Positions 13,898-16,797 are shown, counted from the first letter of the stretch. The stretch: 64,000 nucleotides of DNA from Escherichia coli O127:H6 str. E2348/69 (GCF_000026545.1 NC_011601.1), one strand, 5' to 3'. A program made the numbers and translations. Notes: generated from the sequence alone by a model not told the origin.

Positions 13898-13934
13898 GAG
13901 AACTGTTCAGGGAGTCTGACATCAAGAGCGCGGT
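13898..13934 (-). mobile_element. IS911-like (IS3 family) fragment, left side of the IS30 insertion
   Basis: Sequence ...GAGAACTGTTCAGGGAGTCTGACATCAAGAGCGCGG is the reverse complement of the IS911 orfA 3' region as I recall it. Confidence 0.5.
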
Positions 13935-15046
13935 TGTAGATTCAATTGGTCAACGCAACAGTTATGTGAAAACATGGGGTTGCGGAGGTTTTTTGAATGA
14001 GACGAACATTTACAGCAGAGGAAAAAGCCTCTGTTTTTGAACTATGGAAGAACGGAACAGGCTTCAGTGAAATAGCGAATATCCTGGGTTCAAAACCCGG
14101 AACGATCTTCACTATGTTAAGGGATACTGGCGGCATAAAACCCCATGAGCGTAAGCGGGCTGTAGCTCACCTGACACTGTCTGAGCGCGAGGAGATACGA
14201 GCTGGTTTGTCAGCCAAAATGAGCATTCGTGCGATAGCTACTGCGCTGAATCGCAGTTCTTCGACGATCTCACGTGAAGTTCAGCTAATCGGGGCAGACG
14301 CTATTACAAAGCTGTTGATGCTAATAACCGAGCCAACAGAATGGCGAAAAGGCCAAAACCGTGCTTACTGGATCAAAATTTACCATGGCGAAATCTTGTT
14401 CTGGAAAAGCTGGAGATGAAATGGTCTCCAGAGCAAATATCAGGATGGTTAAGGCGAACAAAACCACGTCAAAAAACGCTGCGAATATCACCTGAGACAA
14501 TTTATAAAACGCTGTACTTTCGTAGCCGTGAAGCGCTACACCACCTGAATATACAGCATCTGCGACGGTCGCATAGCCTTCGCCATGGCAGGCGTCATAC
14601 CCGCAAAGGCGAAAGAGGTACGATTAACATAGTGAACGGAACACCAATTCACGAACGTTCCCGAAATATCGATAACAGACGCTCTCTGGGGCATTGGGAG
14701 GGCGATTTAGTCTCAGGTACAAAAAACTCTCATATAGCCACACTTGTAGACCGAAAATCACGTTATACGATCATCCTTAGACTCAGGGGCAAAGATTCTG
14801 TCTCAGTAAATCAGGCTCTTACCGATAAATTCCTGAGTTTACCGTCAGAACTCAGAAAATCACTGACATGGGACAGAGGAATGGAACTGGCCAGACATCT
14901 AGAATTTACTGTCAGCACCGGCGTTAAAGTTTACTTCTGCGATCCTCAGAGTCCTTGGCAGCGGGGAACAAATGAGAATACAAATGGGCTAATTCGGCAG
15001 TACTTGAACCGCCCCGGGTTTCCTGGAGAGTGTTTTATCTGTGAAC

Positions 15047-15937
15047 TCAGGCTGCCAGATCATCGTTTCCGATGGAAGCATAATAAGCTTTTTCTGCTTC
15101 TGCCGGAGGAGTATGGCCCAGCCTTTCCAGCAATCGTCGATTGTTATACCAGTCCACCCACGTGAGTGTGGCCAGTTCCACTTCTGCACGGTTTTTCCAG
15201 CTCTTACGGTGTATTACCTCCGCTTTGTAAAGACCATTGATGCTCTCCGCCATCGCGTTGTCATACGAGTCGCCTGTACTTCCTGTTGATGCCAGTAATC
15301 CGGCTTCCTTAAGCCGCTGTGTGTAGGCCAGCGATACATACTGAGAACCTTTATCACTGTGATGGACCGTGCCGGACGGTCGACGGGCCCATAACGCCTG
15401 CTCCAGTGCATCCAGCACGAATGTCGTCTCCATGGACGATGAGACCCGCCACCCCACAATGTATCCGGCAAACACATCAATGATGAACGCCACATAGACG
15501 AAGCCCTGCCATGTGCTGACGTAAGTAAAATCAGCCACCCACAGCTGGTCAGGTCGTTCTGCCACGAACTGACGGTTTACGCGGTCGCCTGCGGCAACGG
15601 CTTTCCGGCTGATGGTCGTACGGACCTTTTTACCCCGGAGAACACCGGCAAGTCCCATAACCGCCATGAGGCTCGCCACTGTACATCTGGCTACCCTGAT
15701 TCCTTCCCGTAACAACTGACGCCAGACTTTACGCACACCGTATACCTGATGATTCCCATCGTATACGCGCAGTATCTCTTTCTTCAGCCAGTCATCGCGC
15801 TGCGCACGGGCACTGCGTTTATCCGGATGATGTCGCTGTTGCTGACAGTGGTAATACGTTGACGGGGCAATATGTAGTTCACTGCATACCGGTCCGACCC
15901 CGTACAGCTTACGCAGCTTATCCAGCAGTGGCATCAC
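15047..15937 (-). CDS. IS629 transposase OrfB
   Basis: 296-aa ORF matching recalled IS629 OrfB (MMPLLDKLR...DDLAA) with DDE-type integrase core. Confidence 0.88.
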
Positions 15938-16260
15938 TTTTTCCAGAGGCGGTCGAACTCCGCCTTCGCAAAATAAGCGGAAGCCTGGCGAAGGATATCG
16001 TTACTGCGGCGCAGTTCACGATTTTCACGTTCCAGCTCTTTCAGACGCTGACGTTCAGCGGTGGTGAGCCCGCCATCACCGCCTCCGGTATCCCGCTCAT
16101 GCTGGCGTACCCAGACACGCAGAGTCTCCGGTGTACAGCCAATCTTTGGGGCAATGGAACAAATTGCCGCCCACTGTGAGTCATATTCGCCCTGACTTTC
16201 CAGAACCATACGAATCGCCCTCTGACGGACTTCGGGGGAAAAACGAGTATTTTTAGTCAT
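15934..16260 (-). CDS. IS629 OrfA
   Basis: 108-aa ORF ([41 protein letters not shown]...); 4-nt overlap with orfB. Confidence 0.88.
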
Positions 16261-16467
16261 CCTGTTTACCTCTTTCTCAGGGAGTTTAGTCTCCAGGATT
16301 CCCGGGGCGGTTCAACTTTCCTAAAAAGACATGTCTTGCCCAATATACTCAACATGAACTAGATCTGGTTGCTGCTCAGCTAAACAACAGACCGAGAAAG
16401 ACACTGAAGTTCAAAACACCGAAAGAGATAATTGAAAGGGGTGTTGCATTGACAGATTGAATCTACA

Positions 16468-16797
16468 GTAGCCTTTTTTAATATTTCATTCTCCATTTCA
16501 ATGCGTTGTAGCTTTTTCCTCAGCTCACGTATTTCGATTTGTTCTGGTGTTATCGGAGAGGCTTTTGGTGTTTTGCCCTGACGCTCATCACGCAGTTGTT
16601 TGACCCATCTTGTCATTGTGGAAAGGCCGATATCCATAGCTTTGGCGGCATCTGCCACCGTGTAGTTCTGGTCAACAACCAGTTGAGCGGATTCGCGTTT
16701 AAACTCTGCGCTGAAATTTCTTTTTTTCATTGGAGCACCTGTGTTGTTCTGAGGTGAGCATATCACCTCTGTTCAGGTGGCCAAATTCAGTGTGCCA
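16468..16797 (-). mobile_element. IS911-like fragment (left inverted repeat plus 5' part of orfA), right side of the IS30 insertion
   Basis: orfA N-terminus [32 protein letters not shown]... from ~16730, cut after ...EILKKAT by the IS30 end; terminal sequence ...GTGGCACACTGAATTTGGCCACC near 16797. Confidence 0.75.

Follow-up and report, generated by a model that had tools for sequence, protein, structure and literature searches.

Enteropathogenic Escherichia coli E2348/69 very probably carries, within one of its genomic islands, a fossil stack of insertion sequences (ISs) in which IS911 arrived first, IS30 second, and IS629 third. The nest is three-deep, with an IS629-type element inside an IS30 element inside an IS911-type element. 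The order can be read from the inner elements, since they are complete, are flanked by their own target duplications, and leave a restored host sequence when removed. Population counts agree with this order, with IS911::IS30 occurring in 1216 genomes vs 4 assemblies having IS629 at its ACT site. The depth of the nest, the identities of its elements and their order of arrival had already been put forward in a preliminary description. All three are borne out by alignments to the K-12 copies, the duplications, the restoration of the host elements, the population counts, and agreement with the PGAP annotation. The nest is an ordinary IS stack, already known and annotated in a reference genome, with no new element, mechanism, or gene, and serves as a tidy textbook example of how relative insertion order is read from nesting.

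The window, i.e. the whole stretch of DNA that was analysed (64 kb), begins at position 1152001 of NZ_LT827011.1, and all coordinates below refer to it unless another accession is given. Curated mobile-element coordinates of K-12 MG1655 (IS30A, IS30D, IS911A, and IS911B) and other complete genomes were used as references. Population comparisons covered 5426 complete E. coli genomes and relied on junction-specific queries. Because the alignments are near-identical across hundreds to more than 1000 bases, chance matches are of no concern. Table 1 presents the coordinates of the elements and of their main features.

Table 1. Features of the IS block, in window coordinates
Feature	Position	Strand	Remarks
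Complete IS3, 1258 bp	10869-12126	-	PGAP: 'IS3-like element IS3 family transposase, programmed frameshift'
ISEc47, 5'-truncated IS66-family element	12127-13897	+	PGAP name; IS66 transposase domains
IS911-like remnant, nt 336-372, final orfA codons	13898-13934	-	Exact match to K-12 IS911A ACCGCGCTCTTGATGTCAGACTCCCTGAACAGTTCTCG; 100% identity to TUM3755
IS30 5' part, nt 1-1071 minus G352	13935-15004	+	99.4% identity to K-12 IS30A, one 1-bp gap
IS30 G352 deletion (GTTCAGC[G]TAATCGG)	14285-14286	+	Global alignment to IS30A; frameshifts the transposase gene
Complete IS629/IS1203-group element (IS3 family), 1310 bp	15005-16314	-	ACT duplication at 15002-15004 and 16315-16317
IS629-type orfB	15937-15047	-	Open, 296 aa
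IS629-type ALIL frameshift pseudoknot	15979-15863	-	Rfam RF01497, 116 bits
IS629-type orfA	16260-15934	-	Open, 108 aa
IS30 3' part, nt 1069-1221, right inverted repeat	16315-16467	+	100% identity to K-12 IS30A
IS911-like 5' part, nt 1-335	16468-16802	-	97.9% identity to K-12 IS911B nt 4-334; 98.1% to the TUM3755 copy

Architecture of the three nested elements

The outermost layer consists of two pieces of an IS911-like element, one on either side of IS30. The larger piece carries the left inverted repeat, the start of orfA and an HTH domain (PF01527 HTH_Tnp_1, together with the IS3-family N-terminus of NF033516), and is annotated by PGAP at 16473-16730 as 'transposase, missing C-terminus'. Its tip (TGTAG...) lies at 16802 and reads TGTAGTGGCAC, vs TGAAGTGGCAC in K-12, with a difference at nt 3. 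This comparison of termini moves the end of the nest, previously placed at 16797, to 16802. Direct reading of the sequence locates the A6G slippery heptamer (A-AAA-AAG, motif TTAAAAAAGG) 5 nt before the IS30 break. The smaller piece, a 37-nt remnant to the left of IS30, ends against the right end of ISEc47 at 13897. The left inverted repeat, the HTH of orfA, the A6G site, and a high identity are thus all present, as expected for IS911. Missing are orfB, the right inverted repeat, the target duplication, and the length of about 1250 bp, as nt 1-372 alone remain in the 64-kb window. A search across the window for the remainder of IS911 and of ISEc47 recovered neither, and no further IS911, IS30, IS629, IS3, or ISEc47 sequence lies elsewhere in it, each of them being single-locus there. 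The IS911-like copy is a fragment. Its name rests on nt 1-372, so that it might instead derive from one of the relatives ISEc52 and ISEc31. With only one end left, the copy is immobile.

The middle layer is an IS30 element on the + strand with an overall span of 13935-16467, which interrupts the IS911-like orfA at 13934/16468 as previously described. The alignment to IS30A reaches nt 1 and nt 1221 without terminal mismatch. The first and last reference bases being present, both inverted repeats are intact, as had also been claimed. The element is bracketed by a 2-bp duplication, GT at 13933-13934 and 16468-16469 (AC in the IS911 orientation), and 2-bp repeats are characteristic of IS30 (PMC9333248). 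Nucleotides 1-1071/1072 of IS30A align to 13935-15004/15005, in keeping with the left break that had been set at 15005, whereas the right break, set at 16304, falls between 16314 and 16315 and was thus 10 bp off. Excision of 15005-16317, i.e. of IS629 plus one ACT, yields a colinear IS30 of 1220 bp vs 1221 bp in the reference. Five substitutions separate the copy from IS30A (nt 324, 454, 461, 843, and 893). A 1-bp deletion had been reported near 14285, and this position proved exact, since the global alignment shows G352 to be lost after window position 14285.

A length of about 1221 bp, an identity of at least 95% (99.4-100% to IS30A and IS30D), both inverted repeats, and the 2-bp duplication all identify this copy as IS30; on sequence grounds, it is defective but still IS30. 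The single intact transposase gene of the element (HTH plus DDE/rve, 383 aa) is absent from this copy, owing to the loss of G352 and to the split by IS629 after nt 1071. The 5' part retains HTH_38 and rve domains and is recognized as an IS30 transposase by NF033563, and PGAP labels the gene 'frameshifted; incomplete'. A query segment of this IS30 (14180-14480) is present at one place per E2348/69 chromosome. This single occurrence means that there is no second chromosomal IS30 and, consequently, no chromosomal helper transposase. With its transposase gene disabled twice over and no second copy on the chromosome, IS30 is dead here despite having kept both ends.

The innermost layer displays the features of the IS629 group: a length of 1310 bp with the terminal repeats, an orfA/orfB pair with a -1 frameshift and an ALIL pseudoknot, and a target duplication within the 3-4 bp range. 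The same length, terminal repeats, orfA/orfB organization with ALIL, and 3-4 bp duplications are found in the IS629/IS1203/IS3411 elements of EHEC O157:H7 and Shigella. The terminal repeats are TGAACCGCCCCGGG, those of the group being TGAACCGCCCCGG..., and the O157 copy differs by 1 base per repeat. The 3-bp ACT duplication that had been described around the element was found on both sides. HTH_Tnp_1 and rve domains were detected (NF033516, 306 bits), and PGAP reports an intact 'IS3 family transposase' with a programmed frameshift, under this generic name only and with no pseudogene flag. According to the ISfinder convention, isoforms share at least 95% nucleotide identity with the named isoform. 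The element is 96.2% identical, ungapped (50 substitutions), to the O157:H7 copy named IS1203 by PGAP, and its identity to the pO55 copy is 97.2%. Target duplications of 3-4 bp are typical of IS629, and its sub-types spread over 4-5% (Rump et al., PMC3271280). Judged from these comparisons of sequence, the copy falls inside the IS629 sub-type spread, and 'IS629-like' names it at the appropriate level. Bar the coordinate slips at the right IS30 break and at the IS911 tip, the alignments to reference IS30, IS911, and IS629-group copies therefore upheld the junctions and the frameshift of the preliminary description.

Neighbouring elements and genomic setting

The nest belongs to an IS block (10869-16802) of 5.9 kb of unbroken IS DNA that comprises five elements. 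Next to the IS911 remnant, what is left of ISEc47 is the final part of tnpB, a tnpC that is intact (12254-13867, 537 aa), and, directly against nt 372 of IS911, the right end (...GACGCTTAC). Lost are its left repeat, the whole of tnpA, and the greater part of tnpB, so that no full tnpA-tnpB-tnpC operon between two inverted repeats is found at this place, the left part being replaced by IS3. No target duplication flanks IS3, which is bordered by CCT and GAT and abuts the truncated ISEc47. The missing duplication suggests an IS3-associated deletion or recombination. The earlier claim that intact transposase genes survive only in IS629 and IS3 is correct for complete elements, but tnpC of the truncated ISEc47 is intact as well. 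The IS629-type element and IS3 are the only structurally complete elements here and are both potentially active. E2348/69 has no functional chromosomal IS30, and its one structurally intact IS629-type element could still cause rearrangements.

In the RefSeq annotation, the genomic island that harbors the nest ends at a tRNA-Ser gene (29078-29165; serX, going by its position) beside ghrA. One flank of the IS block is a type I restriction-modification operon with darT-darG. The other flank comprises a yeeP-like GTPase gene (frameshifted), an Ag43/AIDA gene (truncated), and a CP4-44-like module extending from yeeS to cbtA.

Distribution of the junctions and insertion history

The junction between IS911 and IS30 (100-bp query) was recovered from 1216 of the 5426 complete E. 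coli genomes and is carried by both chromosomes and plasmids. It is identical to the dinucleotide with the junctions of two K-12 nests, IS911A::IS30A of CP4-6, in which the two elements are parallel, and IS911B::IS30D of KpLE2, in which they are antiparallel. In the KpLE2 nest (insO/insI3, NC_000913.3 4507125-4509801), as in the window, IS30 lies antiparallel at the same dinucleotide (...AAAAAGGCTAC followed directly by IS30); the left part of the window IS911 is 97.9% identical to this copy and the window IS30 about 99.4%. By contrast, IS30D is intact, with neither IS629 nor a frameshift, and its far side shows part of an IS600 followed by further IS911, whereas in the window 37 nt of IS911 are followed by ISEc47. 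The CP4-6 nest (insN/insI1) has the same insertion dinucleotide and the same AC duplication as the window. It differs in that IS30A is intact and parallel to IS911A, and in that IS911A shares only 92% identity with its counterpart in the window. That IS30A interrupts IS911 in K-12 has already been described (PMC9333248).

The presence of this junction in 1216 genomes implies either that the first nesting predates the locus or the lineage, or that IS30 has a strong hot spot in IS911. Most likely, the IS911::IS30 layer was inherited or imported as a ready-made module, old and widespread. Alternatively, the sharing of the junction reflects a very strong IS30 hot spot, given that both IS30 orientations exist at the same IS911 site. 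IS911::IS30 being widespread, the first nesting is no evidence for events at this locus. This qualifies the view of the segment as an IS sink, which is fair for the block 10869-16802, but which includes a widespread, pre-formed module that was not necessarily formed here.

A different reading is that all three layers, as well as ISEc47 and IS3, accumulated at this very locus within the E2348/69 lineage, which would make the block a true local sink. The unbroken run of five elements, together with an ISEc47 junction and a G352 deletion that are private to E2348/69, would fit such a history. It is nonetheless unlikely, because the IS911-IS30 junction has the dinucleotide and orientation of K-12 IS911B::IS30D and recurs across these many genomes, in several different surroundings on chromosomes and plasmids.

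Of the genomes searched, just the three E2348/69 assemblies have the continuous ISEc47-IS911-IS30 junction. Likewise, the window IS30 allele including the G352 deletion (query 14180-14480) is restricted to these three assemblies among the 5426 genomes, and the deletion is absent from the IS30 copies of TUM3755, pHS30-1, and S51. Both the G352 deletion and the abutment of ISEc47 are private to E2348/69, for which the ISEc47-IS911 junction and the deletion provide a lineage marker.

At this exact site, the second nesting is far less common than the first. As a single aligned piece, the exact IS629-IS30 junction was found only in E2348/69 and TUM3755 (4 assemblies). In TUM3755 (NZ_CP135680.1), the nest lies beside fecE/leuX and has the same three layers, ACT site, IS629 orientation, and IS911-IS30 junction. 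Its locus differs from that of E2348/69, its IS911 keeps orfB and the right end, and its IS30 has G352 but another 1-bp deletion. The two nests differ at 31 of 1310 positions in IS629 (2.4%), 10 of 335 in the IS911 arm (3.0%), and 8 of 1070 in IS30 (0.7%). With the same site and duplication and this uneven divergence, the two IS629 insertions may represent one event or two. A wide distribution of the whole nest was also considered, as 159 genomes match it at 80% query coverage or more. It was rejected, since most of these genomes have IS629 elsewhere in IS30 or in IS911, and the count therefore overstates the sharing of the exact nest.

Under the favored history, in which a ready-made IS911::IS30 module was later entered by IS629, IS30 would first have inserted into an IS911-type element at nt 335/336, 5 nt past the frameshift heptamer, with a 2-bp duplication. 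The resulting module, with the junction known from KpLE2 of K-12, most likely arrived ready-made. An IS629/IS1203-group element would then have entered IS30 after nt 1071 by copy-out-paste-in, generating the ACT duplication and removing the last 47 codons of the transposase gene. Copy-out-paste-in, with a circular intermediate, is the transposition route of both the IS3 and the IS30 families (PMC9333248; bioRxiv 10.1101/2023.06.07.543989). G352 of IS30 would have been lost in the E2348/69 lineage, and in the same lineage the 3' part of IS911 (orfB and the right end) was probably replaced by the abutting ISEc47, the left part of which would have been lost beside the IS3 that lacks a target duplication. 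The arrival of IS30 before IS629 is the parsimonious reading; a disabled IS30::IS629 could in principle move in trans. As for the persistence of the stack, an insertion into IS DNA that is already dead would cost the host nothing, and such DNA may act as neutral 'safe-landing' DNA.

IS629 insertions into IS30

The inner nesting could also result from target choice, with IS30 being a preferred target of the transposases of the IS629 group. Chimeric IS629-IS30 junction queries in both orientations were used as a hot-spot check, the adjoining IS911 segment serving as a control. Duplication-flanked IS629 insertions were found at no fewer than 9 IS30 positions and in both orientations, and the spans of the matches point to some 25 or more different positions within nt 540-1071 of IS30. 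Insertions with duplications include those at nt 226-228, 663-665, 706-708, 741-743, 1067-1070 (GTAC), 1069-1071 (ACT), and 1198-1200. The ACT site of the window is occupied in the opposite orientation in pAMSC2, and the GTAC site, one base away, is occupied in pHS30-1. If true, such a preference would be an undescribed case of IS-on-IS target choice, as opposed to neutral accumulation.

Several observations speak against it. The sites are scattered along IS30 and share no common motif, and by our own estimate about 2 near-coincident pairs are expected by chance in some 530 bp. The control IS911 segment has IS629 insertions too (283 + 18 genomes, at about 7 positions), mostly from one pO157 clone. 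Per-genome counts are dominated by clones, pO157 being an example, and are uncorrected for target copy number or clonal inheritance. Furthermore, IS629 has no sequence-specific target according to Rump et al. (PMC3271280). An origin of the inner nesting in target choice is consequently improbable, and it is quite doubtful that the IS629 group favors IS30 notably around nt 1067-1071, where insertions occur in both orientations, with a 1-nt offset, and on unrelated replicons. As the control is also hit, the counts are dominated by clones, and coincidences are expected, these data do not establish IS30 as an IS629 hot spot, and neutral persistence in dead IS DNA is the simplest explanation.

In strain 14EC047, an IS629 insertion lies at about nt 886-888 of IS30, where the flanks tat/tac are imperfect and the duplication is not clean.

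Finally, although IS elements are a classic source of misassembly, it is virtually inconceivable that the nest is an artefact of collapsed or chimeric repeats, given that three independent E. coli O127:H6 E2348/69 assemblies match the window at every position of 13800-16900 (100% identity), that every junction has the correct duplication, that excision restores the host element, and that the same nest exists in TUM3755.

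IS30 target site within IS911

The window and the two K-12 elements IS911A and IS911B all carry IS30 at one and the same IS911 dinucleotide (comparison loci L002, 3511-3541, and L003, 3429-3459). From the sequences compared, this shared use of a single dinucleotide suggests that IS911 contains a natural hot spot for IS30. The IS911/IS30 junction, queried as 100 bp, is found in 1216 of 5426 complete E. coli genomes. IS30 lies parallel to IS911 in K-12 IS911A and antiparallel in K-12 IS911B. The frameshift heptamer of IS911, A-AAA-AAG, lies 5 nt upstream of the insertion (window 16468-16490, IS911 nt 313-335).

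The tip of the window IS911 reads TGTAG, versus TGAAG, and forms with its flank a short hairpin-like inverted repeat, GTGCCA-CTACAC-TGGCAC (16785-16815), which is probably a coincidence.

Insertions into IS30 and loss of the ISEc47 left end

IS629-group elements occupy many distinct IS30 positions in complete E. coli genomes, in either orientation (window 13935-16467; comparison loci L007, L009, L013-L017). In pAMSC2, such an element is found in reversed orientation at the ACT site duplicated in the window, and in pHS30-1 at a GTAC site 1 nt away. IS911, used as a control target, is likewise occupied by IS629-group elements. Across the complete E. coli genomes, IS30 was not demonstrated to be an IS629 hot spot.

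The IS3 at 10869-12126 is complete (1258 bp) and adjoins the 5'-truncated ISEc47, an IS66-family element. It has no target-site duplication, its flanks being CCT and GAT. Together, these features imply that the ISEc47 left end was lost via an IS3-associated deletion or recombination.

Island genes and boundary

In the region 1-7629, hsdR, hsdS and hsdM make up a type I restriction-modification operon. A DNA ADP-ribosylation toxin-antitoxin pair, DarT-DarG, is inserted in it between hsdR and hsdS, and operon and pair together constitute a small defence cluster at the island edge.

Remaining genes and modules of the island
Feature	Position	State or content
yeeP-like GTPase gene	within 16973-23836	frameshifted
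Ag43/AIDA autotransporter gene	within 16973-23836	both ends truncated
Trio: dynamin-family protein, RdcB-family protein, patatin-like phospholipase	within 16973-23836	intact; after the yeeP-like and Ag43/AIDA genes
CP4-44-like module	24176-29165	DUF932, antirestriction protein, yeeS, yeeT, YeeU-family antitoxin, CbtA toxin, DUF5983, DUF957, DUF4942

The CP4-44-like module stops at a tRNA-Ser gene adjoining ghrA, which marks the island boundary.
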